In this document: in pieces, positions 2,774-54,796 of the stretch
How positions within the stretch are numbered: the first letter of the stretch is position 1
How the letters are laid out: every line of letters begins with the position of its first letter
Assembly: GCA_016217735.1 (NCBI GenBank)
Contig: JACRGQ010000059.1
Span: 5,208-69,207 of the forward strand
Length of the DNA stretch: 64,000 nt
Direction of reading: 5' to 3'
Origin: Nitrospinota bacterium
Lineage (GTDB): Bacteria; Nitrospinota_A; UBA7883; JACRGQ01
Position numbers and translations under genes: made by a program
The notes under the pieces: generated by a model
What the model was told of the DNA's origin: nothing
Database searches by the model: none
The model's input: the letters and a program-made list of their open reading frames with translations, nothing else

Positions 2774-3688
2774 ATGCCACGCCGAACGGCCGTTTTATTT
2801 TTCGCGGCGCTTGCCTCCTTGTGCGTAAGCGCGGGGAGCGCCCGCGCCGCCAATTGCAGCTATCTCCCCGAAAGCCCGATGCCCGCATGGGTGGAGAAGC
2901 GCCCCGAAATGCCCGGCTATTACGTGGGGGTGGGGGTGGCCGGTCCGATGCGCGAGCCGCAGGAACAGATCGACGCCTCGCAGGCCAACGCGCTGACAAA
3001 CCTCGGCAAGGAAATCACCGTGACGGTTAAAAGCACGTTCACCGATATCGCGCGGCAGGAGGGGCGCTGGAGCGACCAGGAAATCACCGCCGAGACCGAA
3101 ACGCGGGTGACCGCGCTGCTGCGCGGCGCGAAGACGAAAGAGAAATGGCTGGACCGGAAAAACTGCCAGCTTTGGACGCTGGTAACCGTTTCCCGCGAGG
3201 ATGTGGCGGCGGTGCAAAAGGAGATGGAAGAGCGTGCCCGGAAACAGTTCACCAGCAAGAGCCTGATGCTTTTCCCGCTGGCGCATCCGGACAAGCCTGA
3301 CGATCTGGAGCGGCGCGTTTCCGCCGCCATGGGAAAGGTGATGCGCGATATGGGGGTGGGGATGGTGACGCCCGAAATAAAATATCTCCCGTGCGCGCAG
3401 GGAACGTATTCGAAATTGTGCGACGGGAAGGCCGAGACCATCTACGGCGGCTTCACCCTGGAATTCGACAAAGAGAAACTTTCCGCCGACGGGCAGTACA
3501 AGGCGCGCTTTTATTTTTTCAAGGGGGCGCTCTACTTCAAGGACCGCACCGTGAGCGTCATCGACGTCAAGTGCCGCGGCGTGGGGGGGGCGGCGCAGGA
3601 TGCCGATGCCATCGGCCTGATCGCGGCGGATCAGTGCGTGGCCGACATCAGGAAAAAACTTGAACGGGACATGCAAGGCTCCGAGTAG
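2774..3688 (+). CDS. secreted LPP20-like lipoprotein-domain protein with C-terminal extension
   Basis: N-terminal signal peptide (AALASLCVSAGSARA). The YYVGVGVA...Q...A...A block resembles LPP20-family lipoproteins. Confidence 0.6.
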   Translation: MPRRTAVLFFAALASLCVSAGSARAANCSYLPESPMPAWVEKRPEMPGYYVGVGVAGPMREPQEQIDASQANALTNLGKEITVTVKSTFTDIARQEGRWSDQEITAETETRVTALLRGAKTKEKWLDRKNCQLWTLVTVSREDVAAVQKEMEERARKQFTSKSLMLFPLAHPDKPDDLERRVSAAMGKVMRDMGVGMVTPEIKYLPCAQGTYSKLCDGKAETIYGGFTLEFDKEKLSADGQYKARFYFFKGALYFKDRTVSVIDVKCRGVGGAAQDADAIGLIAADQCVADIRKKLERDMQGSE

Positions 3689-3713
3689 GGGCGGCGCGGA
3701 GAAGGGCGTGGGG

Positions 3714-4943
3714 TTGACAAAGCGGCGCGCCGCGCTTTTTGCCTTGCTGGCGGCGCTGCCGTTCATCGGCTCGTGCGCCACGGCGCTGGAAGCGTATCAG
3801 GCCACGCAGGAGCCGCCCAGCGTGGAAATGGTGGTCGACCGGGTGAATACCGCCGCGCGCGTGCTGGAGCTGGAAGACATCATGCTGCACGCCATGCCGT
3901 TCTCCGCCGGCTCCCGGTGGCCGCAGGACTGCGATAAAACGATTCCGGCGGGCGACATGGGAAAACTGGCCGCCATCGCCGCGCAGGACGCGATTTTCAG
4001 CCCCGGATCGGTTTTCAGGCCGTCGTTCATCCGCATCCGGACGCTCTATCTGCAAACAATCCTGTTCGACAGCGCTCCCAGCCTGCACTACCGGCGCCAA
4101 TATGTGGACATCCCGCCGGATAACGACGCCATCCGCGCGTACGGCCAAAGAACGCTGGGGGGGGACTACAACCCGGTTTTCAACAAGTCGTTTTACCGCT
4201 TCCTCCGCTATACGCCGGACTTCGTGCCGCAGCGGGCGCATTTCGAGGGGAAGTTCGAGAACGCGCCGGCGGAATACTTCGCGAATCTGGAAGACGCCGT
4301 CATTTCGCTGGCGGATAACCAGGAGCAGCTCCAAAAGATACGCGGCGACATGCTGGAAACGGAGGACGGAAAAAAGCGCGCCGTGCGCGACATGAACGAC
4401 GCCGCGATGCAGATAAAAAAACTCAAGGACGAAGATAAAAATAAGAACGCCGCCGAAATAGCCGATCTGGAAAACGAAATGGCGGCGCACCGGAAGGAAT
4501 ACGACAGTGCCGCGGCCCGCTATGAAGAATTGCTGGGCGCGTGGAAGCTGGAATTGGCGAAGGTGAAACGGCAGACCACCGCCTTCACGCCGGAGCAGCG
4601 GGAACTGGCGGTAAACGTGCAGGCCGCGGTGGGGCTTGTCAAGGGCCTGCACATCGACGCTTCCGCGCTTGTTTTCATCGCGATGGCGCGGCTTCCCGAT
4701 TCGCTCATGAACCTGCCGGACGAACTGAACCGCCTGATGCGCGCGCCGTTCGCCGGCGAACGGGTTGCGCGGCTGCTGCTGAACGTCATTTCGCTCAAGG
4801 ATAACGTGGTCATTATCAGGAACGAACTGGGGCAGCACTATGCCGAGGCGGACGCGATGGACGGCCTGTTTGACAGCCGCATCAAAACTGCAACCGTCAA
4901 GAAGCCCGAACAGCCGCCGGTCAGCCCGGAAGAGAAAATTTAA
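3714..4943 (+). CDS. lipoprotein, coiled-coil rich, hypothetical
   Basis: In-frame TTG at 3714 follows a GGAG. Signal peptide plus lipobox (PFIGSC). The central region is rich in K/E coiled coil. The longer ORF from 3660 overlaps the upstream gene. Confidence 0.5.
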   Translation: MTKRRAALFALLAALPFIGSCATALEAYQATQEPPSVEMVVDRVNTAARVLELEDIMLHAMPFSAGSRWPQDCDKTIPAGDMGKLAAIAAQDAIFSPGSVFRPSFIRIRTLYLQTILFDSAPSLHYRRQYVDIPPDNDAIRAYGQRTLGGDYNPVFNKSFYRFLRYTPDFVPQRAHFEGKFENAPAEYFANLEDAVISLADNQEQLQKIRGDMLETEDGKKRAVRDMNDAAMQIKKLKDEDKNKNAAEIADLENEMAAHRKEYDSAAARYEELLGAWKLELAKVKRQTTAFTPEQRELAVNVQAAVGLVKGLHIDASALVFIAMARLPDSLMNLPDELNRLMRAPFAGERVARLLLNVISLKDNVVIIRNELGQHYAEADAMDGLFDSRIKTATVKKPEQPPVSPEEKI

Positions 4944-5039
4944 AACCGCCCCGGTTTCGGGACGGGTGGTAGAATGATTGCGCCGGTTGAATCCCGGCAA
5001 AGCCATTGCGGACAACATACTTTTGGAGGAAATATACCG

Positions 5040-5612
5040 ATGAAATTTATGAAAGCGGTCACGGTAATGGGACTTGTGGCGCTCCTCGCGTCGTGCGCCA
5101 GCGCGCCGCCCCCGCCGCCAAAATCGTATTGCACCGATGGGCGCGAACTTCCCGCATGGACCATGCAGGGGGCGATGGCCTTTCCGGCCGATATCGGCAA
5201 GGTGTTCTACGGCGTCGGCATGGCGTCCAACATCAGCAACCCCTCGCTGTTGCGGGAAACGGCCGATAACCGCTCCATCAGCGAAATGGCCAAGCAGTTC
5301 GAGGTCTATACCGCCTCGCTGATGAACGATTACATGGCATCCACCTCCGCCGCCGACAAGGCTTCGGAAGAGCAGCATGTGGAAGTCGTCAAGAAGACGG
5401 TGGTGAAGCAGACGCTCAACGGCGTCATGATCGCGGACCGCTGCCAGGACCGCGCATCCGGCATGTTCTACTCCCTGTCCCGGCTGGATATGGACAAGTT
5501 CAAGGACGCCATCGCCAAGAAGGCGGAGCTGACCGACAAGATGAAGGAATACGTCCGGGCCAACGCCGACAAGATGCTTGAAAAGCTGGAGAAGGAAGAG
5601 GCCAAGCGCTAA
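5040..5612 (+). CDS. LPP20-family lipoprotein
   Basis: ATG at 5040 with a GGAGGA RBS. Lipobox (LLASCAS). FYGVGMA..NPSLLRETADNRS..EMAKQ is typical of LPP20. Confidence 0.7.
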   Translation: MKFMKAVTVMGLVALLASCASAPPPPPKSYCTDGRELPAWTMQGAMAFPADIGKVFYGVGMASNISNPSLLRETADNRSISEMAKQFEVYTASLMNDYMASTSAADKASEEQHVEVVKKTVVKQTLNGVMIADRCQDRASGMFYSLSRLDMDKFKDAIAKKAELTDKMKEYVRANADKMLEKLEKEEAKR

Positions 5613-5636
5613 TTCCGGCTGACGAAAGGAAAGATC

Positions 5637-5789
5637 ATGCGTAAACTGACTGTTTTCGCGGTGGCGGCGCTGTTGTTGGCCGCCGCCTGCGCCAAGCAAC
5701 CGCCCCCGGAAAAAGCGTGGGACAAGGAAGGGGTGCGCCAGCGCGCCGGCGAAACCGGCAAAAAGCTGGAGAAGGAAGAACAGCGCTGA
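5637..5789 (+). CDS. small lipoprotein, 50 aa
   Basis: ATG at 5637 follows AAGGAAAG. Lipobox (LLAAAC). A strong terminator follows. Below the ORF-track length cutoff. Confidence 0.45.
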   Translation: MRKLTVFAVAALLLAAACAKQPPPEKAWDKEGVRQRAGETGKKLEKEEQR

Positions 5790-5816
5790 ATGCCATACGG
5801 CGGAGCGCACGGATTT

Positions 5817-5845
5817 AAAAGGGGGCCGCGGCCCCCTTTTTTTAT
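5817..5845 (+). terminator. rho-independent terminator
   Basis: GGGGGCCGCGGCCCCC hairpin at 5821-5836 followed by T8. Confidence 0.65.
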
Positions 5846-5902
5846 GCGCGTTAATGCCCGCCACGGCCCCGTCCAGTAAAAAAAACAGGGAGCACGCCGG
5901 AG

Positions 5903-6407: not shown

Positions 6408-7328
6408 ATGAGCCTCTGCGCCATATCCACCTGCTGGCGGTCGGAAGAGCTGACCGACCCGCCCGCGTTGATCGCGGCAATGAAGGAAACCGGCATGAAC
6501 GCGCTGGAACTGGAGTTCCGCGTGGGCGCGCCGCTGTTTGAGGCGATTGAAAAAAACCGCGAGGCCTGGGGAATCCGCGTTTCGTCGTTGCACGCCGTTT
6601 GCCCCTCCGCGCCGGGCCGCGGCAAGGGGGCCGAGGAATTTTTGATCTCCGACCTCGATGATGAACAGCGGAAGAGGGGGGTGCGCGACGTTATCGAAAC
6701 GCTCCGCCGCGCGGCCGGTATCGGGGCGGGGGCGGTGGTGCTGCATTGCGGCGCCATTTCGGAAGAACTCAATGCGCACAAAACCATGATGCGCTTTTGC
6801 GATGAGGGAAAGCTGGACGGCCCGGAGGCCGAAGCGGCGCGGGAGGCGCTGCTGGTCAAGCGGGTGGCCGCCGCGCGGAGGCCGTTCGCCCAGACCTTAA
6901 AAAGCCTGGACGCGATAAACGGGGCGGCGGTAAAGGCGGGGGTCAAGGTGGGGCTGGAAAACCGGTATTACTTTGGCGAGTTCCCGCTCTTCGAGGAATT
7001 CGGCGTCATCTTCAATATGTTCGACGGCGGCAACCTGCATTACTGGCACGATACCGGCCACGCCCACACGCTTCAGACGCTCTTCGGCATCCCGCACCGC
7101 AAAATGCTGGAGACGTTCGGCAGCCGCCTCGTCGGCATGCACCTGCACGATGTGGTGAACGGCTACACCGACCATAACGAGCCGGGCTGCGGCGCGGTGG
7201 ATTGGGACATGGTGAAAGGGTTTTTAAAGCCGGATACCATCCGGGTGATGGAGATCAACCGCCGGATTCCGCTGGATCGCGCATTGCAGGGCGCGGCGTT
7301 CCTCCGCGCCAAAGGAATTTTTGACTAG
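6408..7328 (+). CDS. sugar phosphate isomerase/epimerase (xylose-isomerase-like TIM barrel)
   Basis: GLENRYYFGEF...HYWHDTGHAHT...GMHLHD metal-ligand pattern of the AP-endonuclease-2 / xylose isomerase-like fold. Confidence 0.7.
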   Translation: MSLCAISTCWRSEELTDPPALIAAMKETGMNALELEFRVGAPLFEAIEKNREAWGIRVSSLHAVCPSAPGRGKGAEEFLISDLDDEQRKRGVRDVIETLRRAAGIGAGAVVLHCGAISEELNAHKTMMRFCDEGKLDGPEAEAAREALLVKRVAAARRPFAQTLKSLDAINGAAVKAGVKVGLENRYYFGEFPLFEEFGVIFNMFDGGNLHYWHDTGHAHTLQTLFGIPHRKMLETFGSRLVGMHLHDVVNGYTDHNEPGCGAVDWDMVKGFLKPDTIRVMEINRRIPLDRALQGAAFLRAKGIFD

Positions 7329-7385
7329 GCTCCCCAACTTTTCCAATCGTCACCCTTCGTTGGAAAATTGGACGATCTGCCACTA

Positions 7386-7423
7386 GGCCGCGCCAGGTTA
7401 GTTTATCGACCAAAGGTAGACAC
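7386..7423 (+). repeat. degenerate 38-bp direct copy of the sppA 3' terminus (partner at 7613-7650)
   Basis: GGCCGCGCCAGGTTAGTTTATCGACCAAAGGTAGACAC versus GGCCGCGCCCGGTCAGTTCATCGACCAGAGGTAGTAGAC, about 32/38 identical. Confidence 0.55.
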
Positions 7424-7479
7424 AGGATTAATTGCTGGTTCGCATACGTTAAAAATGACGTACGTCAAGGATAAATACT

Positions 7480-7505
7480 GGATCCCCGCCTTCGCGGGGA
7501 TGACA
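7480..7505. repeat. solo REP-like hairpin GGATCCCCGC-cttc-GCGGGGATGACA (end motif of the MITE family)
   Basis: Perfect 10-bp stem. The same motif forms both termini of the element at 38720-38872. Confidence 0.55.
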
Positions 7506-7624
7506 TCTTTGCTTTGTACTTGATACGGGGCGGAAATAACAAATCATCAGGGACGAGTGTCGTGGAGAAAATTCCTGGATTTGCCTTTGACTGAATCGCG
7601 AATCACGCTCCAGGCCGCGCCCGG

Positions 7625-8554
7625 TCAGTTCATCGACCAGAGGTAGTAGACGCCGGGCTTGTGGACGGCGACTTCGTTCATCAGCCAGTCGAATTTGCCG
7701 GCGAGGGATGTTTTTTCGCTCATCAGCTCTTTCAGCCAGAGCATTTTTTCTTCGTGGCGCACCAGCGCCGGTTCGCCGCTGATGCCGGCGAGCTGCGCCG
7801 TCAGTTTCACCGCTTCTTCCATCCCGCCCAGCGCGTCGACCATGCCGTTGTTCTTCGCCTGGTTGCCGGTGTAGACGCGGCCGTCGGCCAGTTCCCGCAC
7901 CTTCGTTTCGGGCATATTGCGCCCTTTGGCCACGGCGGTGACGAACTGGCCGTACACGTCGTCGATCATTTCCTGCACCACCTTCTTTTCGCGCTCGGTC
8001 ATCGGGCGGAAGGCCGAGCCGGTATCCTTGAACTCGCCGCTTTTCACCACCATCGGCTGCACGCCGATTTTCCCCATCAGTTCCTGCACGTTCATCAGGT
8101 TCATGATGACGCCGATGGAGCCGGTGAGCGTGCCGGGGTTGCAGATGATCTTGTCGGCCGCCACGGCGATGTAGTAGCCGCCGGACGCGCCGAGGGTGGC
8201 CATGCTGGCGACGACTTTTTTCTTCCGCCGCGCGGCGAGGATGGCGTCGTGTATCTCCTGCGAGGGGGCGACCGCCCCGCCGGGGGAATCGATGCGGATG
8301 ATGATCGCCTTTATCGCCTTGTCGTTGGCGTAGTTCTTTATCTGTTTTACGGTCTCGTCGGCGGTCATGATGGTGCCGAAGACTTCGACCACGCCGATTT
8401 TATCTTTGCCGATGGACTTGATTGTTTCGCCGCTTGAGCCGCCGCCGAAAGGAAGGAACGAGATGAGGGCGATGAAGCCGACGGAAAGGGCGATTAAAAG
8501 AACAAACCCGGCCAGCAGCCCTTTTTTATGGGAGCTATTGGCCGGGTTTTCCAT
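7625..8554 (-). CDS. sppA: signal peptide peptidase SppA (36K type)
   Basis: N-terminal TM segment, then ClpP/crotonase-fold blocks IRIDSPGG, SMATLGASGGYYIA, GSIGV. Confidence 0.85.
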   Translation of the reverse strand: MENPANSSHKKGLLAGFVLLIALSVGFIALISFLPFGGGSSGETIKSIGKDKIGVVEVFGTIMTADETVKQIKNYANDKAIKAIIIRIDSPGGAVAPSQEIHDAILAARRKKKVVASMATLGASGGYYIAVAADKIICNPGTLTGSIGVIMNLMNVQELMGKIGVQPMVVKSGEFKDTGSAFRPMTEREKKVVQEMIDDVYGQFVTAVAKGRNMPETKVRELADGRVYTGNQAKNNGMVDALGGMEEAVKLTAQLAGISGEPALVRHEEKMLWLKELMSEKTSLAGKFDWLMNEVAVHKPGVYYLWSMN

Positions 8555-8566
8555 TGTGCGGACGGG

Positions 8567-10240
<1,674 letters not shown>

Positions 10241-10285: not shown

Positions 10286-10933
10286 TTAAGCGAGAAATTG
10301 TAAGATTTTTTCGATAGTCTCGTCAAGGCTTAAATGGGAGTTGTCTATTTCAACAGCCCCGCGCGGAACCACCAAAGGTGAAACCAGCCGGCTGGAATCC
10401 TTGGCGTCGCGTTCAACTATATGTTTTGCAATCTCTTGCGCCTTTTCCGCCGGTTCCCCCGTTTGCAAGGCGCGCCGCTTGCCACGTTCGGCGGGGTTGG
10501 CGCTAAGGAAAAATTTATGGTCGGCGTTCGGAAAAACGACGCTGCCGGCGTCGCGTCCTTCCACAATCACCGTCTTGTGTTTTTGCGCGATGCCGCGCTG
10601 TTGCGCCACCATTTTTTCCCGCACGCCGGGGTGCGCCGAAACGGCGGATATGCTGGCGTCGATCTCGGGGGTGCGGATGGCGGCGGTAACCTCGCGTCCG
10701 TTGACAAAAACTTTTTGGCCGCCTTCCGCTTCCTGAAAATCGATGGCGATAGCGCCGGCAATGGCGTCCAGTTTCGCGGCGTCGGCGGGGTTCGTCCCGC
10801 TTTCCAGCGCCAGCAGCGTCACGGAGCGGTACATCGCGCCGGTATCGAGATACACCCCCCCCAGTTTTTTGGCCAGTGCGCGGGCGGTGGTGCTCTTGCC
10901 GCTCCCCGCCGGCCCGTCAAGCGTGATAATCAT
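10286..10933 (-). CDS. cmk: cytidylate kinase
   Basis: IITLDGPAGSGKST P-loop and the CMP-kinase family pattern. Lies immediately upstream of rpsA, the classic arrangement. Confidence 0.9.
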   Translation of the reverse strand: MIITLDGPAGSGKSTTARALAKKLGGVYLDTGAMYRSVTLLALESGTNPADAAKLDAIAGAIAIDFQEAEGGQKVFVNGREVTAAIRTPEIDASISAVSAHPGVREKMVAQQRGIAQKHKTVIVEGRDAGSVVFPNADHKFFLSANPAERGKRRALQTGEPAEKAQEIAKHIVERDAKDSSRLVSPLVVPRGAVEIDNSHLSLDETIEKILQFLA

Positions 10934-12318
10934 TTTTGCAATGCTTTCAATTCGATTTCAATCCAGTCTTGAGCTTTTTTCTCCGTTTTTTCAATTGCCA
11001 TTTCAACACCCTGCTTGGCGATACGAAGAAGATTTTTTGACAACGCTTTGGTGGCATACATTTTCGAGATTTTATTTTTAATATTTTCCTGAATGCTTAA
11101 GGACAATTCCGGCAGAATAATGCGCTTAAACTCATCATCGCTTATGGCCGCTAAGATTGTGCCTGAACATCCCTTCTTAAGCTGTAATTGCCCAACCACC
11201 GACTTGAGCAAAACAAGCAAGGTCTGGGAATTAATTCCATCTGATTTGATAACAAAGAAGCCCGTTGAACATAAAGCATTATCTAAATCATCCGCAATTA
11301 GGGCGATACTTGAAAGCGACCCCTCAATTGTCGAAACAATAACATCCCCGGAATTGACTTTACGTCTTGCCCGGGTTGGTAATTCTTTGCCTTGCGCCTC
11401 AATGAATCCATTAATGTTTCCGTTGGTAGATATGTTCGCAAGCTCGATATATTGATAGAGTTCATCATCCTTCGGCTGGAAATTTTTATCCTTAATCCTA
11501 ACAATTTCGCCCAAAGGTTTATAACCCTTTTTGTATTGTTTGATGCGGTGGACCACATCCTCATACATCGGCTGAAAATATTCAGCGTCGAGGCGATTGC
11601 TAGATTGAGCACTCGAAAAATTCTTGATAAAAGAAAGACGATGTCTCGGCTTCCAGCTTAAGAAACCAAGCTCGGCAATTAATGCGTTTTCTGCTTCTAT
11701 ATAAATTGCGTTAGCGGATTCCTGCTTTTTGTAAGCGGCGTAGACTATTTCCTCTATCATAGATTGAATAGTAGGAGCCAAAACAGGAATCTGGATGTCT
11801 CGGAATTTTGCAGGACTAAAATTCGACTGATTGCTAATCATCAAATTTTTTTCTATCTGTGCCCTGCCAACTCTGCAATTTAAATAAACAACCAATGTCG
11901 CAGAATTAATTATTTTTCTCTTGGGACGAACGCGAAATAGATATGATGCAAACGCATAATCATAATCTTTGGGAACTAGGGCTGATTTTCCAACCAACTT
12001 TGGATTGCCATTTGTCCGACAAATTAGAACATCGCCTTTTTTTAAAATTAAATTCCCATATGTTTCAGCATTGATTTTGTCGCAAAACTTTTCTGGCCTT
12101 TTTATAAACATACCGTCATATTCATTTAACCTCAGAATGGGGTAGCCGTTCCCGATTTCGTTAAGTTCTTCGGATGTGCCATATTGTACAAAATCAACGG
12201 CATCCTCTCCCGTTACAAAACTAGAATCAATTTGAGATTTATGACAATAATACTCTGCCTCTAATCTCCAGATTTTATGCCTCTTTATTTCTGAAAATGT
12301 AACTATTGCAAGCCTCAT
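10930..12318 (-). CDS. hsdS: type I restriction-modification specificity subunit HsdS, two target-recognition domains
   Basis: Two TRD halves and the conserved central/terminal helices. The ATG at 12318 overlaps the hsdM TGA (ATGA), indicating translational coupling. Visibly AT-rich. Confidence 0.8.
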   Translation of the reverse strand: MRLAIVTFSEIKRHKIWRLEAEYYCHKSQIDSSFVTGEDAVDFVQYGTSEELNEIGNGYPILRLNEYDGMFIKRPEKFCDKINAETYGNLILKKGDVLICRTNGNPKLVGKSALVPKDYDYAFASYLFRVRPKRKIINSATLVVYLNCRVGRAQIEKNLMISNQSNFSPAKFRDIQIPVLAPTIQSMIEEIVYAAYKKQESANAIYIEAENALIAELGFLSWKPRHRLSFIKNFSSAQSSNRLDAEYFQPMYEDVVHRIKQYKKGYKPLGEIVRIKDKNFQPKDDELYQYIELANISTNGNINGFIEAQGKELPTRARRKVNSGDVIVSTIEGSLSSIALIADDLDNALCSTGFFVIKSDGINSQTLLVLLKSVVGQLQLKKGCSGTILAAISDDEFKRIILPELSLSIQENIKNKISKMYATKALSKNLLRIAKQGVEMAIEKTEKKAQDWIEIELKALQK

Positions 12319-14379
12319 GCTCCATTCTTCCAAAAGCTCAAATCTTCCTTTTTCGCCCACTTAATAAATGCTTCCGCAATGCCGTCAGGCAATTCACTAC
12401 CATGATTGTGCAGATCATGGTCAACGATAAGATGGCCATATTTATCTAGCTTGGGCCCCCCCCCCAGAACCATTTTTGACATAAATATATTCGCCTGAAT
12501 TATTCTTGCCGGATTTTTCTGAAACACCAAAAAAAATGGGGTAATCGTCCTTTTTAGGGCACAGTTTATCGTCCCATTTTTGTAAAAATAGGACGCTTGT
12601 CTTTGTACCCGTGTGTGGTTTAAAAGTATTTACATGGAGTCCCACAACGGCCAAAATGCAGGCTTTTTCGGCTATGTATTTCCGGATTTCTTTGTCAGAG
12701 GAGTTATTAAATCGTCCTTGCGGCAACACAATTGCCAAACGTCCGCCGGGTTTAATAAAGTCAAGGTTGCGCTCGATAAAAAGAATGTCGCGCCCAACCT
12801 TTGATTTTGGCTTGTTGTTATTGTTATAGCCTAGTTCGTATTTATGAATGATGCGGGATTCTTTAATGTCCCCAGCAAATGGCGGATTTGCCATAAGGAT
12901 ATCGAAGTCAAACTCCTTATACGAGTTGGGCTCTTTCTTAAGGTCTTCCAAGCGCCTGAAACCGTTACCATAGGTATCGCGCCACTCAAGATTAGTAACT
13001 GTTTCATTCCAACGATCATAATCGAGCGTGTTGAGGTGAAGAACGTTTGTTTCCCCATCACCGGCAATAAGATTCAATGTACGCGCCACACGAACAACCT
13101 TTTCATCAAAATCAATGCCAAAGACCTTAAGAACGTCCTCTTTTTCTTCCTGCGAGATTTCAGTGTTTTCAAAGAGGTGTCCAGTAAGCTGAAAAATCGT
13201 GTGAACAGTAAAGCCGCATGATCCAGAGGCGGTATCAATCATATATTCTCCGGGCTTTGGATTTAGCATCTTCACGCACATGTCTATCACGTGCCGAGGC
13301 GTGAAATACTGGCCTTTTTCCCCTTTGGAGGACTTGCTGACCAGATATTCAAATGCTTCGTCTATAACCTGAAGATTGGAGTTGAAAAGCTTAACGTCTT
13401 GAAGGCTTGATACACAGACAGAGAGATGAGAGGGGGAAAGTTCGATCTTGCTTTCTTCAGGGAATACGCCGTGCCATTTCCTTTTTGCCTCATCAAATAA
13501 CCTCTGAATCTTCGACTTTAATTCACCTTCGGATTGTCCGGTATTCCTGAACTCAAGTACCCGGAAATCGCTTGTGTCTACATTTTTCAAAATCGCTTTT
13601 ACTTTTTCAAAATCGCCAATTTCTTCAACTTTCAGTTTACGTTTAATTGTTCGATCTATCATGACCTTGTCATCTTTACTTTTTGTTTCGTCGTGCAATT
13701 TTGTGAAGATAAGTTTAAAGACTTCTTCAAAGACGTCTACGCCCGCGTTAGCAAGGACTTCGTCTTCCATTTCTGTGATGATTGTCTTCAGGGATTTGCC
13801 TTCATTTGGAATTTTGTCCCTGACGATGAGGTCGCGCCATGTGAAACGTTCTTTTAAAATGTCCTCCAGAGTCTGGTCGGCTTTTGGAATATCGGTTATG
13901 TCTTCAAAGAAATTGGGGTCTTTGCGGTTGTAATGGGAAATTTGCCCGCCATTTGTCCAAACGCCGATCGGGGCGCCAGTCGCGTTGCAATATGACTTAA
14001 GCTGGCCCTTCCCATCCTTGAGTTTCGGCTTTTTGACTTCAACGATAATGTATTCAACGGTTGGCCTATCCTTATCAAAGATAATAATATCCGCCGATTT
14101 TGTTTCTCTTCCAAACTGAACAGGATGCTCAAAACGTATTCGTTTTTTTGGATATCCGTATTCATTTATGAGTCTTGCGGTAAAAAGCTGACGGACAATT
14201 TCTTCAGGCTTAAGTTGGATTAGCTTTTCACGGATAATACATTTTACGTAAGGTTTGCTTTTTTCGATCGCAATTTTTTTTTCTAGGATTTTTATATCCT
14301 CGCCTGAGAAAAGGGAAAGATTGTAGTTTGAATCTTTTAGAATCGAGTCGAGCGTAGCACGATTTTTTTCATTTATCAT
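12315..14379 (-). pseudogene. hsdM: type I R-M N6-adenine methyltransferase HsdM, frameshifted at a G10 tract. Phase-variable or inactivated.
   Basis: Contains the NPPF motif and AdoMet-binding blocks. The reading frame stops at 12442. The C-terminal 45 aa continue in another frame (ORF 12315-12530) directly after poly-C at 12456-12465. A tract of 9 G restores one ORF of about 688 aa. Confidence 0.8.
12456..12465. repeat. homopolymeric C10 on the + strand (G10 on the hsdM coding strand)
   Basis: Read directly: TTGGG-CCCCCCCCCC-AGAAC. Confidence 0.9.
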
Positions 14380-14403
14380 TTTGGCTACCTTTTTTATTCC
14401 AGA

Positions 14404-14817
14404 TCAATCAATCACATCCAAGGGCAAGCTTGAGCGCACCAGATGCCTCACTTTGCGGGCCAAATCAACGGCCTCTTCCGCTTCAACTCGGGTTATCGGC
14501 TCCCATTCACCGGGATAACGGGTTTCGATCGAATACCGGTTCAATGTCTGCAAAGGGAGTTCGTGGGGATTCATGCATCCCGCTTTTATCGCCAGATTCT
14601 TAAGTAAGATCAGATCATGCGTCTTGGGAAAATCCAGTGCGTTAAAAGCAAGAAGGCCCTTTAAATATTTTTCGGCGCATTGTTGGGCGTGGAAACAAAC
14701 GGTATCGAATGGACAATCGTCTTTCAGCGTTAGTGTATGTTCCGCCGTCCGGAGGTCATGCTCGGCCTTCTCAATCCACTGTCGAACAAGCCTTCCCTTG
14801 TCAGGCGGCGCGTTCAT
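14404..14817 (-). CDS. HEPN-domain protein (toxin partner of the MNT)
   Basis: IETRYPGEW HEPN signature. The internal ATG at 14817 overlaps the MNT gene by 17 nt. Confidence 0.7.
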   Translation of the reverse strand: MNAPPDKGRLVRQWIEKAEHDLRTAEHTLTLKDDCPFDTVCFHAQQCAEKYLKGLLAFNALDFPKTHDLILLKNLAIKAGCMNPHELPLQTLNRYSIETRYPGEWEPITRVEAEEAVDLARKVRHLVRSSLPLDVID

Positions 14818-15121
14818 ACAGGACTTTTCCCTCCTTGAGCGCGGGATAAATGATTGAGCCGGCAACATCACGGTATTTCTCAGCCTCTTCCGGCGTGACC
14901 ACAATCACATCCAGCGGCAACGTGCGATCCGCCAGGGCTAAATCGATCTCCGCCGTTTTTTTTCGCTTTGACCCCTCAACCCGCATGATCACCAACAGAT
15001 CCACGTCGCTATCCCTGCCAGGCGTTCCTTTGGCGTATGATCCGAAAAGGACGATCTTTTCGGGATGAAAGCGCTTTACAATCACTTCCGCCATTTTGCC
15101 TATGGCTTCCTGATCCGTCAT
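14801..15121 (-). CDS. minimal nucleotidyltransferase (MNT, Pol-beta superfamily) antitoxin partner
   Basis: The block LFGSYAKGTPGRDSDVDLLV carries the GS...DxD motif of the Pol-beta nucleotidyltransferase fold. Confidence 0.75.
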   Translation of the reverse strand: MTDQEAIGKMAEVIVKRFHPEKIVLFGSYAKGTPGRDSDVDLLVIMRVEGSKRKKTAEIDLALADRTLPLDVIVVTPEEAEKYRDVAGSIIYPALKEGKVLYERAA

Positions 15122-15180
15122 TCCATAACTCCCGCTGTTCGTTTTGGGCGCACTTGATACGTTGATTATAATACCTTAAA

Positions 15181-16047
15181 TCACTTTTCCAGCTTTCCCC
15201 TAAATTCGTTCGCCCGCTGAAGCATCCGCATAAGCGCCTCGCGGTCATGTGAGCGGATGGCGTTTTCGATGTCCACAAGATTGCCGCGCATGGCGGATGA
15301 AAGCTCCAGCATCTTCGGCCCGTTCGCCAGCGCGATATCGGCCCACATCTCCGCCGGGCTGGCGGCGATACGGGTGGTATCTTTAAAACCACCGGCGGCG
15401 AAATCCAGCAGTTTTTCCCCACCTTCAAGTTGGCTTACCGTGTTCACCAACGCATAGACCACAAGGTGCGGCAGGTGGCTCACCGCCCCCATAACGGTAT
15501 CGTGCGTGACGGGATCCATCTGTACGGTCTTCATCCCGGCTCCGCGCCAGAATGCCGTCAGCTTTTCCAACGGTTCCGCGGGGGTGTTGGGCGTGGGAGT
15601 GACGATGCATTTGTGGTTCTCAAAAAGCGTTTCAAACGACGACGCGGCCCCCGATTTTTCGGTGCCGGCTATCGGGTGCGAACCGATGAAGACGAACCGC
15701 CCGGCGGCGATTTTCTCTCCCCGCTCCACGATCTCTTTTTTTGTGGAGCCGCCATCGGTCACCAACGCCCCCTTTTTTATGTGGGGGGCGATGGCTTCGA
15801 GGGTGGGGATTATGGAGAGGACTGGCGGGCAGAGCACGATGAAATCGGCTTCCTTTACCGCCTCGGCCGCCGGGAGCGCGGCATCGATGATGCCAAGTTC
15901 GAGGGCGGCCTTTAAATTTGCCTCGCCCCGTCCCGCGCCGATTACCCGCTTGGCCATGCCGCGGTTCTTCAATACACGGGCTATCGAACCGCCGATAAGC
16001 CCGACGCCGATGATGACAGCGGTATCAAAAAAAGGTTTTTTATTCAT
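15181..16047 (-). CDS. tyrA: prephenate/arogenate dehydrogenase
   Basis: Rossmann motif VIIGVGLIGGS plus the TyrA catalytic blocks (GSHPIAG, HD..MA..SHLPH). Confidence 0.85.
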   Translation of the reverse strand: MNKKPFFDTAVIIGVGLIGGSIARVLKNRGMAKRVIGAGRGEANLKAALELGIIDAALPAAEAVKEADFIVLCPPVLSIIPTLEAIAPHIKKGALVTDGGSTKKEIVERGEKIAAGRFVFIGSHPIAGTEKSGAASSFETLFENHKCIVTPTPNTPAEPLEKLTAFWRGAGMKTVQMDPVTHDTVMGAVSHLPHLVVYALVNTVSQLEGGEKLLDFAAGGFKDTTRIAASPAEMWADIALANGPKMLELSSAMRGNLVDIENAIRSHDREALMRMLQRANEFRGKLEK

Positions 16048-16392
16048 GTTCCGGTTTTCGCAATAGCATGAGTTTACCCGCTTATAGCATTGAAAATCAA
16101 CTATTTTTAGAAAAAGGCGGATGCGGAGGAAAAGAAATGGCATGCTAACGCATCTGCATTATAAACAATGCGTTACGCGAAAACAAAAGACTATGTTTTC
16201 CCATGATTACGGCGAATTTCATCGATGCCGTGTGCATCTATTTGTATGTAAAGGCATTAATGTTGTGGGAGGCTGTGGGTGGCTTCCGCCCCCTTCGCCC
16301 CCACATTTTATTGACAGAATGTTAAGTTAGTGTTACTATCATTTCTACAATATCTTACGTGTCAATTCACGATTCCAGAGAGGTGGCAGCAA

Positions 16393-22615: not shown

Positions 22616-23488
22616 TCACTGTTTTTTCGGGTTCAAATATTTGCCGATGATAGGCTTCAGCGCCAGCTTGGTCTTCGGCGGTATTTTTTTCGGATCGGTC
22701 ATTATGGTGTGGGCCAGCATGTGATTGCACCCGGCGGGGCAATCGGCGGCATCATCGATTTCGGCCACCGCTTCCTTGATGATCTTTTGCGACATCTCCA
22801 CGTTCTTGTGGATGATCTCCAGGATGGCGGCGGTGCTCACCTCCTCATGCCCTTCGTACCAGCAGTCGTAATCGGTGGACAGGGCGATGGTGACGTAGCA
22901 GATTTCCGCTTCGCGGGCCAGCTTCGCCTCGTTGAGATTGGTCATGCCGATGACGGACGCGCCCCACGAGCGGTACATGCGCGATTCGGCGCGGGTGGAG
23001 AACTGCGGCCCCTCCATATTCACATAGGCGCCGCCCACATGGGTGACGGCGCCGGCGCGTTTGGCCGCCGCGGAGGTCACGCCTATGAGGTGTTTGCAAA
23101 CGGGGTCGGCGAACGAGACGTGGGCCACCACGCCGTTGCCGAAGAATGTGCTGGCGCGGGCGAACGTGCGGTCGATGAACTGGTCGGGGAAAACGATGTG
23201 GCCCGGCGCGATCTCCTCCTTGAGGGAGCCGACGGCGGAGACGGAGAGGATTTTTTTCACCCCCAGCGTTTTGAAGCCGTAAATGTTGGCGCGGAAGTTC
23301 AGCTCACTCGGAAGTATCCGGTGGCCCCTGCCGTGGCGGGGGAGGAAAATAAGCTCTTTGCCGTTCAGCTCGCCGAACATGTATTCGTCGGTGGGGTTGC
23401 CGAAGGGGGTTTTGAGCTTTTTGGTTTTCTTTATTTTCAGCTCTTTCATGCCGTACAGGCCGCTGCCGCCTATAACACCTATCGCCAT
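22616..23488 (-). CDS. mtnP: S-methyl-5'-thioadenosine phosphorylase
   Basis: PNP/MTAP family: MAIGVIGGSGLY, HGRGH, MTNLNEAKLAREAEI. Confidence 0.9.
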   Translation of the reverse strand: MAIGVIGGSGLYGMKELKIKKTKKLKTPFGNPTDEYMFGELNGKELIFLPRHGRGHRILPSELNFRANIYGFKTLGVKKILSVSAVGSLKEEIAPGHIVFPDQFIDRTFARASTFFGNGVVAHVSFADPVCKHLIGVTSAAAKRAGAVTHVGGAYVNMEGPQFSTRAESRMYRSWGASVIGMTNLNEAKLAREAEICYVTIALSTDYDCWYEGHEEVSTAAILEIIHKNVEMSQKIIKEAVAEIDDAADCPAGCNHMLAHTIMTDPKKIPPKTKLALKPIIGKYLNPKKQ

Positions 23489-23536
23489 GTATCGCGCTCC
23501 GTGGATGGGGGTTGTGGGGGAAAAAGAGGAGCGGGA

Positions 23537-25819
23537 CTATTCCCGCTCCGCCTTTTGGTAATCGCCGATTTTCTTTTCGATCTCGCCCAGCAGGAAGCGG
23601 AGCTCGGTGATCTGCCCGGAGGCCTTGTCGATGATCTTTTCCTCGGAGGCGAGCACCTTGATCTTGGTCTTGATGTCTTCGGCGAGGAGGTTGAGATCGT
23701 TGAGCCGCTGTTCGGTGCGGTTGATAAGCGCCATGCGGGAGTTGAGGACGTCGATTTTGGTTTCGGCCTCGCCCATGATGGAGGAGAGGGACCTGATCTT
23801 GTCCGATATTTCGCCGAACGACTCCTGGTGCTTGGCGATCTTCCGTTCCTGCGCGCGAAGGTCTTCTATCTGCGAGGTGAGGACGAGAATGTCTTCCTGG
23901 ACTTTCTTGATGAGCGCCTCTTCCTTGCCGATCTGGTCGGCCTGGCGGGAGGTCTTTTCCATCATGTTGCCGAGCATGTTGAGCCGTTTTTCGGTCTCGA
24001 TGAGGAGTTCCTCTTCGTCGCGGACGCTTCCCAGCCGTTTTTCCAGGTCGGCCAGCCGCGCCTGGATGCCGCCCAGCTTCTCTTCGGTGCCCGCGAGCTG
24101 CTGGCTCCGGGAGGCGAGGCTGCTTATCTGGCCGTCCACCTTGTCGACCGCCGGCATGAGTTCTTCCTTGGCTTTGATGATTCCCTGCAGGAGGTTGTTC
24201 CCTTCCCGCACGTCTTCAAGCTTGCCCGACACGCTTTCCTCGATGACGACCAGCTTGCTGCCCAGCATCTGGAGGCGGCGCTCCTGGGCGTCTATGACGC
24301 TCTTCTCGCGGGTGATGTCCAGTATCTTCTCTTCCACCTGGCGGGTGATTTCGCGCAGGTCTTCCACTTTCTTGTCGAGGTTTTCGAGGAACTCGACCTT
24401 CTTGTTGATCCGGTCCACCTTCAGCGTGGCGTCTTCGATGTAGTAGTCGAGGCCGTCCAGCTTCTTCTCCAGCTTCTCGACGAGGGCCTTGCGCTGGAGC
24501 TGGTTTTCCATCTTCACATCGAGGTTGATGACGGTGGAAGAGAGGGTATTGACCTTTTTCTCCACCTGGTCGACGATGTTGCGGCGCGCCGAAAGGTCGT
24601 TCATCTGGGCGTTGAGCACTTCGTGCATGCCGCCCATCTTCTTGAGCTTCACTTCTATTTCTTCGCTGATCTTGATATCCTCGCGGAAGCGCTGGAGCTT
24701 GAGTTCGAGGTCGTCCGCCTCCTGCTGGAAGCGGGCCATTTTTTCGCGGGCGGACTCCACGGCCCCCATGTCATCCTTGAGTATCTTCATCTTGTTGCCG
24801 ATGGAATCGATGAGGAAGACGTTGAGCTTGTTGATCTTCTCCTCGGTGGCGGCCACCACGTCCTTGTCTTCGCGCACGCGGGTGACATTCACTTCCAGCT
24901 CGCTGTTCATTTCCTCAAGCTGCTTGAGCTTGGCGCCGATGCGCTTGATCATGTCTTCTTTCATCATGATGTTGCCGGTTTCCACGCGCAACGCGTTCAT
25001 GTCCTTGATCAGTTGGGCCACGTCGCGGTTCATCTGGGTCACCAGCGCGTTCTGGCGGAGCAGGTCTTCGCTGCTTGCCTGCAGGCGGCCGATGGTCTGC
25101 CCGATTTTCTCGATGTCCTGCCCGTAGCCGTCGATTTCTTCCTTCTGGCGGGCGATGCGGCCGATCTTGTCTTCCAGTTCGCGGCTGATGCCCTGCAAAC
25201 GGCCGATCTGTTCGTCCGAGGTTTTGAGCAGCCCCTTGAAGGTTTCGATGTCCTGCATCCGGTCGCCCACTTTGTCCAGCATCTCCTCGAGGCGGACGAT
25301 GCCCTTTTCGGTTTGCTTGACCAGCTTGTTCTCTTCGCCAAGCTTCTTGACCTTGGCTTCCATGTCCCAGATCAGGATGTTGAGCTTGCCGGCCTCTTCG
25401 TTGGCTTTTTCCACCACGAGCCGCTGCTGGTTCAGCGCCTTCACCTTGCTTTTCACATGTTCGGCGATCAGCGAGACCTCGTCCACCGCCATGCGGTGCT
25501 CATGCAGGCGGCCGGCGCTTTCTTCCACGCCGGAGGCGATGTCTTTCACGCGGATTTCGAGGTTGCGCAGTTCTTCGAATTTCCCCCCCATCTTGTCGGC
25601 GAATTCGCTGAAGAAGGGGATTTTGCTTTCGAGGTTCTTCATCGTGGTGACGTTCTGGTTCACCTTGTCGATGTTGTTCTGGATGTATTCGACGAGAAGG
25701 TTGAGGCTCTTGCGCTGCGCGTCGGCCTCTTTCACCAGATCGGCAAAGCGGTTAATGTCTTCCCGCGTGAGCTGCGCGTTCCCCTGCGCGGCCGTCTTTT
25801 CCTGTTCCATCGGCAACAA
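23537..25819 (-). CDS. long coiled-coil protein (about 760 aa), hypothetical
   Basis: Uninterrupted heptad-like K/E/L/I/Q-rich sequence with no recognisable enzymatic motif. The opposite-strand ORF (1047 aa) is low-complexity Ala/Gly/Val-rich and was rejected. Confidence 0.6.
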   Translation of the reverse strand: MLPMEQEKTAAQGNAQLTREDINRFADLVKEADAQRKSLNLLVEYIQNNIDKVNQNVTTMKNLESKIPFFSEFADKMGGKFEELRNLEIRVKDIASGVEESAGRLHEHRMAVDEVSLIAEHVKSKVKALNQQRLVVEKANEEAGKLNILIWDMEAKVKKLGEENKLVKQTEKGIVRLEEMLDKVGDRMQDIETFKGLLKTSDEQIGRLQGISRELEDKIGRIARQKEEIDGYGQDIEKIGQTIGRLQASSEDLLRQNALVTQMNRDVAQLIKDMNALRVETGNIMMKEDMIKRIGAKLKQLEEMNSELEVNVTRVREDKDVVAATEEKINKLNVFLIDSIGNKMKILKDDMGAVESAREKMARFQQEADDLELKLQRFREDIKISEEIEVKLKKMGGMHEVLNAQMNDLSARRNIVDQVEKKVNTLSSTVINLDVKMENQLQRKALVEKLEKKLDGLDYYIEDATLKVDRINKKVEFLENLDKKVEDLREITRQVEEKILDITREKSVIDAQERRLQMLGSKLVVIEESVSGKLEDVREGNNLLQGIIKAKEELMPAVDKVDGQISSLASRSQQLAGTEEKLGGIQARLADLEKRLGSVRDEEELLIETEKRLNMLGNMMEKTSRQADQIGKEEALIKKVQEDILVLTSQIEDLRAQERKIAKHQESFGEISDKIRSLSSIMGEAETKIDVLNSRMALINRTEQRLNDLNLLAEDIKTKIKVLASEEKIIDKASGQITELRFLLGEIEKKIGDYQKAERE

Positions 25820-25927
25820 CCTCCCTTTAACGCGAAACGGACACCGTCATAAACGCCGGCATTATACCCTCTTCGGGCGGCATTTTGGGGAAAACGCTTC
25901 CATCGGGAAGCCTTTCCCCGCTCCTCA

Positions 25928-46876: not shown

Positions 46877-47659
46877 TCAACACTCCAACAGTTTCAGCAG
46901 GTTGGCGTGGATGCCCGGCGTCGCGGCGCAGATATGTTTTCCCAGCAGGTCGAGTTTTTCCCCTTTCATGTCGGTGACTGTTCCCCCCGCCTCGGTTACC
47001 ATCAGCGCGCCGGCCGCCATGTCCCATGCATAAAGGTACTGTTCCCAAAAGCCGTCAAAGCGGCCCCGCGCGGTCCAGGCCAGGTCGATGGCGGCGGCGC
47101 CGCAGCGCCGTATCGCCCGGCATTCGGGCGCCACGCGGTTGAAATTTCCCATGTTGTTGCTTTTCAGCGTCCGTATTTCGTAGGGGAAGCCGGTGGCCAG
47201 CACCGCGCCTTCCAGCCGCGCGGTGTCCGATACCTTCATCCGCTTGCCGTTGAGGTACGCCCCTTCCCCTTTGACGGCGCTGAACATCTCGTCGCGCATC
47301 GGGTCGTACACCGCCCCCGCCAGCGGCTCGCCGTCTTTCACCAGGCCGATGGAGGGGCCGAAGACCGGCACGCCGTGGGCGTAGTTGGTGGTGCCGTCCA
47401 GCGGATCGATGTACCAGGTGTAGCCGCTGCCGGTGTTGGTGTCGGTTCCTTCCTCGGCCACCACGTTGTGTTCCGGGAACTCGTCCCGGAGCGCGGCGGT
47501 GATGAGCCGCTCGCATTCCACATCCACCTCGGTCACCAGATTGATGGTGCCTTTGAGTTCCACCTTCACGTTCGTTTCGTACTTCGCGCGCTGAATGTCC
47601 CCCGCCGCGCGCGCCAGCCGCATGGCGGCCTCCGCGGCCTTGCCGATATCAAATTTCAT
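46877..47659 (-). CDS. inositol monophosphatase family protein (SuhB-like)
   Basis: WYIDPLDGTTNYAHG and WDMAAG motifs. Confidence 0.85.
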   Translation of the reverse strand: MKFDIGKAAEAAMRLARAAGDIQRAKYETNVKVELKGTINLVTEVDVECERLITAALRDEFPEHNVVAEEGTDTNTGSGYTWYIDPLDGTTNYAHGVPVFGPSIGLVKDGEPLAGAVYDPMRDEMFSAVKGEGAYLNGKRMKVSDTARLEGAVLATGFPYEIRTLKSNNMGNFNRVAPECRAIRRCGAAAIDLAWTARGRFDGFWEQYLYAWDMAAGALMVTEAGGTVTDMKGEKLDLLGKHICAATPGIHANLLKLLEC

Positions 47660-48736: not shown

Positions 48737-48900
48737 ATTTTTTGGGCCGGATAAGCGGCGATTGTACCGTATTTCCCGCGTGGGCGGGGGTGAAAAGGGG
48801 GCGCAAAAAAAGTACGCGGGAAGGCAACCGGGTGCGCGTTATTTTACCCGCCCCGGCGGAGAGGCGCGGCGTTGGACCGCGCGGCTCCGCTTACCGCATA

Positions 48901-54756: not shown

Positions 54757-54796
54757 CCCCCCCCCAAAAAAAATCTCCGGCTACGGAAGAGCATTG

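Follow-up and report, generated by a model that had tools for sequence, protein, structure and literature searches.

The Type IIB restriction enzymes occur in several layouts, which a review tabulates as two restriction-modification (RM) chains plus one specificity (S) subunit for BcgI and as a single RMS chain of ~1,250 amino acids (aa) for AloI and CjeI, with HaeIV also listed (PMC3874165). In BsaXI, for which a cryo-EM study is available, residues E73, D90, E105 and K107 were found essential for cleavage by mutagenesis and are stated to be conserved across Type IIB enzymes, of which the same paper counts 28 in REBASE (PMC11997821). Here we describe a locus in a 64-kb stretch of DNA (hereafter the window, and all that was seen of this genome) from a Nitrospinota metagenome-assembled genome (MAG), where the 79-kb contig carrying NCBI proteins MBI5638214-218 holds an island of four minus-strand genes between tyrA and cmk: a minimal nucleotidyltransferase (MNT), a HEPN protein, an N6-adenine methylase and an S subunit. 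The original prediction had placed these four genes and named their domains correctly, as open reading frame (ORF) and Pfam calls confirmed, and had taken the last two for hsdM and hsdS of a Type I system. That identity is not supported; the methylase gene (called M in databases, RM below) encodes a conserved PD-(D/E)xK nuclease and has BsaXI as its best solved relative. Altogether, the RM and S genes probably constitute a self-contained BcgI/BsaXI-like RM+S enzyme, frameshifted as assembled, which lies with an independent MNT-HEPN pair in an inserted composite islet.

The N-terminus of the RM protein matched HSDR_N_2, a domain that Pfam describes from the N-termini of Type I R subunits, over the entire profile (positions 1-110 of 110; E=1.2e-27). 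It is followed by a gamma-class methyltransferase (MTase) domain in which motif I (DTASGSCGF, 382-390) precedes motif IV (NPPF, 498-501), and no Pfam match to HsdM_N was found in the protein. The best PDB match by sequence was the BsaXI RM protein, both with the single sequence (E=2.5e-18) and with a profile (E=5.8e-23), in a colinear alignment that pairs the nuclease (45-127 with 32-119) as well as the connector and MTase (270-604 with 259-624). Within this alignment, E114-V-K116 of the window protein falls on E105-V-K107 of BsaXI, while D97 pairs with D90, and E84 with E73, once a gap shift of up to 2 residues is allowed. The four residues are invariant in three alignments (A1, A4 and A5) spanning 32-90% identity; among 88 cluster representatives, some with as little as about 30-40% identity in the N-terminal domain, E84 is retained in 73/79, D97 in 80/82, E114 in 79/86 and K116 in 80/86. 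At the sequence level, this is the pattern that an active site under selection would leave, and a vestigial domain is disfavoured.

Structure prediction agreed with this assignment. A first AlphaFold2 (AF2) model, with a predicted local distance difference test (pLDDT) score of 46, was discarded and not taken to a fold search, while a second one, built on a broader alignment, had a pLDDT of 67. In the latter, the N-terminal domain (pLDDT 73-93) is predicted to form an alpha-beta-beta-beta-alpha-beta core that places E84 in beta-1, D97 in beta-2 and the pair E114/K116 where beta-3 ends. When the model was compared with the PDB by Foldseek, three BsaXI entries came out on top (E=1e-17, ~710 columns, template-modelling [TM] score 0.34); Type I M subunits aligned over the MTase part only (~440 columns, E around 1e-10), and BpuSI and DrdV, both Type IIG fusions of a nuclease and an MTase, were the other long-span matches. 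The low TM score is unsurprising for a moderately confident model of a flexible protein with several domains, and we regard the Foldseek result as supporting, short of decisive.

No ResIII/helicase protein of the HsdR type was found among the window ORFs of at least 450 aa, so the absence of hsdR from the window had been noted correctly. The explanations offered for it, a methylation-only system or an R subunit borrowed from elsewhere, are not supported, since the protein carries its own nuclease and the bare pair of RM and S genes recurs in more than 20 phyla. Rather, because RM has its own PD-(D/E)xK nuclease, the missing hsdR is probably explained by architecture; because this nuclease is fused to the MTase and no HsdR is present in the window, cutting should not need ATP-driven translocation. 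By analogy with BcgI and BsaXI, the proteins would assemble as (RM)2S and methylate both strands of a bipartite site, and unmodified DNA would be cut at fixed distances, on both sides of the site, without a translocase.

The family to which the RM protein belongs is large. A scan of GTDB species genomes recovered more than 565 relatives. At 66-86% identity, the best 80 of these are spread over more than 20 phyla, with groups of the candidate phyla radiation (CPR), many Poribacteria and one Methanoperedens archaeon among them; Planctomycetota and Bacteroidota are also among the phyla represented at this level (loci L011-L090, in our numbering). Even a profile search for divergent sequences still gave the 61-90% core family, and a library clustered at 50% identity contained 678 clusters at E<=1e-30. 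Judged from sequence, this conservation is unusually high for an R-M enzyme, which would imply either rapid transfer between phyla or strong constraint.

We then clustered all ORFs within 10 kb of the RM gene at 82 loci, without bias as to function. The only gene families common to most loci were RM itself (82/82) and S directly downstream (72/82), and S directly followed RM in 72/72 informative loci, the 10 loci without S ending less than 1.2 kb past RM. No HsdR recurred beside RM across the 82 loci, where ResIII/Helicase_C domains were present in only 3/45 neighbouring ORFs of at least 650 aa. Other recurrent clusters comprised overlapping or antisense ORFs within RM and S, plus one family of ~207 aa, which has no Pfam match, lies on the same strand after S in 11/82 loci (for example L011:13474-14052 and L044:4912-5703) and could have an accessory role in the system. 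Bare RM+S pairs were found between housekeeping genes (L001) and on a conjugative Klebsiella IncF plasmid. In some close relatives the functions are joined in a single R-M-S chain, as in P0138 (1,170 aa), P0145 (1,210 aa) and a 1,179-aa protein of plasmid pAQ6 from PCC 7002, and in P0143 (907 aa) R and M are joined to one target-recognition domain (TRD).

Several individual relatives are recorded here in their own right. The pAQ6 homolog of Picosynechococcus sp. PCC 7002 (L176:5995-9534; WP_012308631.1) is 64% identical, and it could explain the bipartite motif GG(6mA)N5CTTC, which the PCC 7002 methylome paper leaves unassigned (PMC12362590). In Poribacteria, one or two tandem paralogs of 930-941 aa with HSDR_N_2 and N6_Mtase domains (L073:6918-9743; L079:3803-6595 and 6917-9715) stand directly upstream of the 704-712-aa RM gene, and these loci look like arrays of nuclease-methylase genes. 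At a Sedimentisphaerales-type locus (L003:11491-12873; also L004 and L005), a 460-aa protein with DUF8426, Mrr_cat and NA-iREase1 domains follows RM and S near a serine recombinase, a three-gene variant on a mobile element.

The S gene of the island is intact, and its product matched the PADLOC profile Specificity_I (up to 1.9e-26) in a full-length alignment (58-466). The closest RM+S pair, in L001, shares 78% nucleotide homology with the window (L001:7986-10818 against window 14394-11558), from 15 nt before the RM start codon to ~760 nt into S. Homology ending at this point within S is consistent with an exchange of the second TRD. L001 had been considered as a second locus of the genome that contains L007, both being under the same assembly accession, and this claim was withdrawn; the hemD gene flanking L001 is 64% identical to that of the window, versus 87% at the cmk locus.

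The RM gene (FRAMESHIFTED at the unique G10 tract) has the coding-strand sequence GGT TCT GGGGGGGGGG CCC AAG at this point, and the tract, the longest homopolymer in the window, breaks its reading frame. As assembled, the ORF stops after 645 codons; with nine or twelve G residues it would extend to position 12315 and encode 687 or 688 aa, 687 being exactly the median length of the family. With either G9 or G12, the restored stop (TGA) shares bases with the start codon of S (ATGA), an arrangement also seen in the homolog L001. Past the tract, a 71-aa ORF (12315-12530) matches the PADLOC profile at its C-terminal end (622-670 of 672). Homologs have K-N-G-D/N-G-K-P-K-L-D at the position of the tract, in mixed codons; G/C runs do not exceed 7 in any of 85 homologous genes, and relative to the ancestral GGNAAG the tract of the window is extended by 4 nt. 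In a simulation with the composition of the island, the probability of any G/C run of at least 10 was 0.004. Elsewhere in the window, a C9 run directly followed by A8 lies at 54757-54773 and a coding-strand G8 run at 10855-10862 within an intact cmk. The G10 tract is also present in Logan contig L006, which was built by another assembler from SRR12113407, probably the same sample.

In the AF2 model the tract falls within a low-confidence loop (622-641, pLDDT <50) and precedes a lone C-terminal helix predicted at 666-677. In the RM+S group, except for BsaXI, the RM subunits end in such a lone helix, which bundles with the conserved regions of S in a four-helix bundle (PMC11997821). The out-of-frame tail has a median identity of 83.7%, against 80.4% for the body of the protein (119 homologs). 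Because the 46-residue tail is as conserved as the body and S is intact, no sign of decay is apparent downstream of the tract. G10 would cut RM 42 residues early and remove the tail that would dock S, and the loss of the ATGA coupling would in addition uncouple translation of S. Since the C-terminal helix bundles with S in RM+S enzymes other than BsaXI and a helix is predicted at 666-677, the frameshift should abolish assembly with S and hence methylation and cleavage, so that both activities are predicted OFF with G10.

The assignment of the enzyme has to be weighed against the possibility that the genes are an incomplete Type I HsdM+HsdS pair, either methylation-only or served by an HsdR encoded elsewhere in the genome. 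Several observations weigh against a BcgI/BsaXI-like enzyme and partly favour this alternative: the family carries a Type I M label in the databases (MTase_I in PADLOC, and the names used by JGI and NCBI), with S labelled Type I as well, the S subunit is of Type I size (462 aa) with two TRDs, while Type IIB S subunits are generally smaller (PMC3874165), and the MTase core resembles the M subunits of EcoKI, StySJI and EcoR124I. The nuclease-domain match to BsaXI is weak by itself (8.8 bits), the TM score is low and the model of moderate confidence, no biochemically characterised member of this exact RM family was found, and the 64 kb of genome seen is compatible with an HsdR elsewhere. Nevertheless, HsdM_N is absent, the nuclease residues appear to be under strong purifying selection, no HsdR recurs at the 82 loci, relatives fuse R, M and S, and over the full length no Type I M subunit matches as well as BsaXI; we therefore consider an incomplete Type I pair unlikely. 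The genes might also be what is left of a larger system like the methylation-associated defence system (MADS), or a minimal version of one, inasmuch as the best NCBIfam matches are MAD2 for RM and MAD5 for S and PADLOC likewise gave mad2 and mad5 matches. MADS is an eight-gene operon that needs mad2-4 and mad6-8 (bioRxiv 10.1101/2023.03.30.534895), whereas the other mad genes are neither here nor recurrent at the 82 loci and the scores are far under the cutoffs (295 bits against 720 for MAD2, 97 against 400 for MAD5). Membership was accordingly rejected, and a derivation of this kind is very improbable. Given these comparisons, the RM+S layout is most likely, and most simply, filed with the BcgI/BsaXI-type enzymes.

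With respect to the frameshift, the tract is unique, improbable and situated in a variable, low-confidence loop with undecayed sequence downstream, and for these reasons it points to a switch or to a very recent inactivation. Phase-variable R-M genes with homopolymeric tracts are known in Helicobacter, Campylobacter, Neisseria and Haemophilus, and a 10-nt G run is intrinsically slip-prone. We tentatively prefer the reading of a reversible slipped-strand ON/OFF switch, which stops short of being probable: tract-length variation was not observed, the only other copy (L006) also has G10, a search of JGI metagenomes for the same allele with variable tract length gave 0 matches, and the GC-rich background of the host would by chance yield G or C runs of 8-9. 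A dead RM gene, recently inactivated by a G10 that is now fixed, in an islet that is decaying and does not switch, is a real if somewhat doubtful possibility. It accords with the presence of G10 in both the assembled consensus and the Logan contig, with the failure to find length variants, with the frequent loss of acquired R-M genes and with the NCBI annotation, whose consecutive accessions MBI5638216 and MBI5638217 leave no protein for the interval from S to HEPN, as fits a pseudogene call. Yet neither the 46 codons past the tract nor any part of S is disrupted or less conserved than the rest, a tract 4 nt above the ancestral length and unique among 85 homologs argues for several slippage steps, and reversion of such a slip-prone run would be expected at an appreciable rate. 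Homopolymers are also prone to sequencing and assembly error, and the real gene could be G9, intact and active, as the restored 687-aa frame with its ATGA overlap would suggest and as the possible origin of L006 from the same reads as the MAG would allow; however, two different assemblers both gave G10, and the other G8 and C8-C9 runs of the window, such as that in cmk, visibly break no genes, which makes an error improbable. The remaining probability belongs to other options, for example transcriptional slippage that rescues part of expression.

The block itself is a horizontally acquired insertion. Close relatives were chosen by an rpsA at least 90% identical to that of the window; a metagenome scan based on cmk had yielded no relative above 48% identity and was uninformative for junction synteny. 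Because three of these relatives (L010, ERZ27297709 and L173) have an empty tyrA/cmk site, in which the tyrA stop and the cmk start overlap by 4 bp, the island is an insertion. The empty junction reads ...AAAAAGTGATCATCACG in L010 and ...AAAAAATGATTATCACG in L173, while in the window ...GGAAAAGTGA is followed by the island and then by ...GCAAAAATGA and TTATCACG. An 8-bp near-duplicate (AAAAGTGA and AAAAATGA) brackets the island and makes its boundaries ambiguous, the corresponding empty-site sequence being AAAAAGTGA in L010 and AAAAAATGA in L173. The stop codon of S is the ancestral tyrA stop, S is 2-3 codons shorter at its end than its homologs, and the ATGA overlap with cmk has been recreated. 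The same 4,247-bp island is present, 100% identical, in L006. Consistent with acquisition, G+C content (GC) is 42.1% in the island versus 59.6% in the remaining window, and by windows it is 0.58-0.65 in the flanks, 0.36-0.44 at 10.9-14.4 kb and ~0.50 at 14.4-15.2 kb. GC at third codon positions (GC3) separates three gene classes: S (0.38) and RM (0.43), HEPN (0.54) and MNT (0.61), and the host genes sppA, rpsA, cmk, tyrA and PIN-TRAM (0.68-0.84). The low GC of the block and its horizontal origin, both proposed in the original prediction, are thereby borne out, the former by windowed GC and GC3 and the latter by synteny together with this contrast.

A third state of the junction was found in L007, L008, L009, L171 and L172, where another AT-rich insert of ~0.6 kb (33-38% GC) encodes a 146-aa ORF with a D..EVK-like motif (LDDVVFLEVKVT) and no Pfam match. 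In L007, L008 and L009 the final ~55 bp of tyrA have been replaced, whereas L171 and L172 retain them. Because sister genomes hold different AT-rich cargo at the same junction, the site is a small hotspot of repeated integration, without a recognisable recombinase; a tRNA, an Rfam family, a terminal inverted repeat and a recombinase were looked for at the island ends and none was found. The composite defence islet entered exactly at the 4-bp stop/start overlap within the housekeeping string tyrA-cmk-rpsA-sppA, leaving the cmk overlap recreated, and comprises two modules, the MNT-HEPN pair and the two-gene RM/S enzyme.

The MNT gene lies upstream of the HEPN gene, whose ATG is at 14815-14817, with a 17-nt overlap. 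MNT has the GS..DxD motif (GSx10DxD; GSYAKGTPGRDSDVD) and scored 36.8 bits against NCBIfam MntA, below the cutoff of 60, whereas HEPN gave no NCBIfam match and lacks the canonical Rx4-6H motif. A 2013 survey of HEPN proteins describes a subfamily (structures 1o3u, 2hsb and 1wwp) in which the motif histidine is usually missing and a second conserved histidine lies upstream, and which clusters with R-M operons (PMC3710099). The invariant residues of the window HEPN include H43, H67, R94 and R100, and these suggest an alternative site of that kind. A toxin-antitoxin function is plausible at the domain level; of the toxin-antitoxin module proposed originally, the domains stand, while the function is weakened by the missing Rx4-6H and the MntA score below cutoff. 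The closest named HEPN relative (69% identical) has its own MNT on another Nitrospinae contig from the same sample (SRR12113407), with no RM and S genes nearby. Because its GC3 differs from that of RM and S, the pair does not recur beside RM at the 82 loci and it stands alone elsewhere, MNT-HEPN is a separate, independent module and the island is composite.

The features are collected in Table 1. A scan for promoters and terminators gave background levels, with no minus-strand terminator predicted inside the island. Elsewhere in the window, the large ORFs at 22709-25852 (1,047 aa), 3648-5864 (738 aa) and 46907-48754 (615 aa) had no Pfam match at E<=1e-5, and some of them may be spurious ORFs in GC-rich DNA.

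Table 1. Coordinates of the island, its genes and domains, and related features (window positions unless a contig is given)
Feature	Position	Strand	Basis or remark
Inserted composite island, 4,247 bp	10934..15180	minus	Alignment with empty-site relatives L010 and L173; GC contrast
RM gene	12315..14379 (assembled ORF 12442-14379, 645 aa; with G9, end at 12315, 687 aa)	minus	PADLOC PDLC03034, 900 bits
PD-(D/E)xK nuclease domain, aa 58-165 (E84, D97, E114, K116)	13885..14208	minus	Pfam HSDR_N_2
Gamma-class N6-adenine MTase domain, aa 338-610	12550..13368	minus	Pfam N6_Mtase 1.4e-35, Eco57I 6.6e-11
G10 homopolymer (C10 on plus strand)	12456-12465	minus	Breaks RM reading frame
Out-of-frame RM C-terminal tail, 46 aa, including predicted helix 666-677	12318..12455	minus	Identity and AF2
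S (specificity) subunit, 462 aa, two TRDs	10930..12318	minus	Pfam Methylase_S, 2 stretches
MNT, minimal nucleotidyltransferase, 106 aa	14801..15121	minus	Pfam NTP_transf_2 1.1e-13, Polbeta 1.3e-12
HEPN protein, 137 aa	14404..14817	minus	Pfam HEPN PF05168, 1.2e-27
Left near-repeat copy AAAAGTGA	15181..15188	minus	tyrA end including stop codon
Right near-repeat copy AAAAATGA	10930..10937	minus	S last codons and stop; overlaps cmk ATG
tyrA	15181-16143	minus	ORF and domain calls
cmk	10286-10933	minus	ORF and domain calls; ATG at 10931-10933
rpsA	8567-10240	minus	ORF and domain calls
sppA-like S49 peptidase	7625-8554	minus	ORF and domain calls
~0.6-kb sister insert	L008:5984-6424; L171:4308-4748; L172 about 440-880; L007:8648-9307		
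Second MNT-HEPN pair	L174:5697-6411; L175:2457-3171		Between rnpA/rpmH and UDP-glucose dehydrogenase gene

Taken at its broadest, our interpretation would be that the genes which pipelines annotate as Type I M plus S, with R lacking, make up a cross-domain and very large family of self-sufficient BcgI-like nuclease-methylases, conserved to an unusual degree (66-90% identity, more than 20 phyla, one archaeon), and that the Nitrospinota copy is homopolymer-switched through loss of its S-docking tail, a combined claim that we hold to be doubtful. If it is true, Type IIB-like enzymes would be far commoner than the ~28 counted in REBASE. Thousands of public genes named N-6 DNA methylase or Type I M, with an HSDR_N_2 N-terminus, probably encode complete restriction enzymes where an S gene accompanies them. 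Counts of orphan methyltransferases and defence inventories would change, and the family would be a source of new bipartite specificities. Loss of the S-docking tail by G10 would by itself turn off restriction and modification together, and if reads show tract-length heterogeneity, contingency-locus biology would extend to environmental Nitrospinota. If the switching is true, no phase-variable R-M enzyme would, to our knowledge, have been described earlier from a lineage of uncultured chemolithoautotrophs.

From their sequences, the island enzyme and the MNT-HEPN pair appear to belong to kinds of system that are already known, and the phase-variation angle is checkable. Like the Type IIB enzymes BcgI and BsaXI ('multimeric Type IIG'), the window system has two genes, in which RM consists of an N-terminal PD-(D/E)xK nuclease with the E...D...ExK catalytic set conserved, a helical connector and a gamma-class N6-adenine MTase, next to a separate two-TRD S, and no helicase or translocase would be involved. 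The lone helix predicted at its C-terminus resembles that of the RM+S enzymes other than BsaXI. Compared with BsaXI, the window RM is remote (17-18% identity in the Foldseek alignment) and shorter (687 versus 916 aa), without the extra ~230 C-terminal residues, in which the paddle of BsaXI is placed (PMC11997821). It further differs from Type IIB enzymes in its longer S (462 aa) and in belonging to a family far more abundant and conserved than the 28 enzymes counted. With the Type I systems EcoKI and EcoR124I it shares an M2S-type MTase core, an S arranged as TRD1-CR1-TRD2-CR2 (CR, conserved region) and an expected bipartite target, but it has no HsdR in the window and no HsdM_N, and its nuclease forms one chain with M.

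Single-chain Type IIB/IIG enzymes (AloI, CjeI and HaeIV; BpuSI and DrdV) are resembled by the relatives P0138, P0145, P0143 and the pAQ6 protein, whereas in the window S is a separate gene. As in phase-variable R-M loci, a poly-G tract lies within a coding region and its length sets the frame, G10 giving OFF and G9 and G12 giving ON; unlike in those loci, the host is an uncultured environmental Nitrospinota without observed length variation, and the tract is near the 3' end, so that only the C-terminal tail is lost and most of the protein kept. Finally, the MNT-HEPN pair is like the MntA/HepT type in having MNT upstream of and overlapping HEPN, in the GS..DxD motif and in a subfamily that clusters with R-M genes, and differs from it in that HEPN belongs to PF05168 and not to DUF86 HepT, lacks Rx4-6H, and is paired with an MNT scoring below the MntA cutoff.

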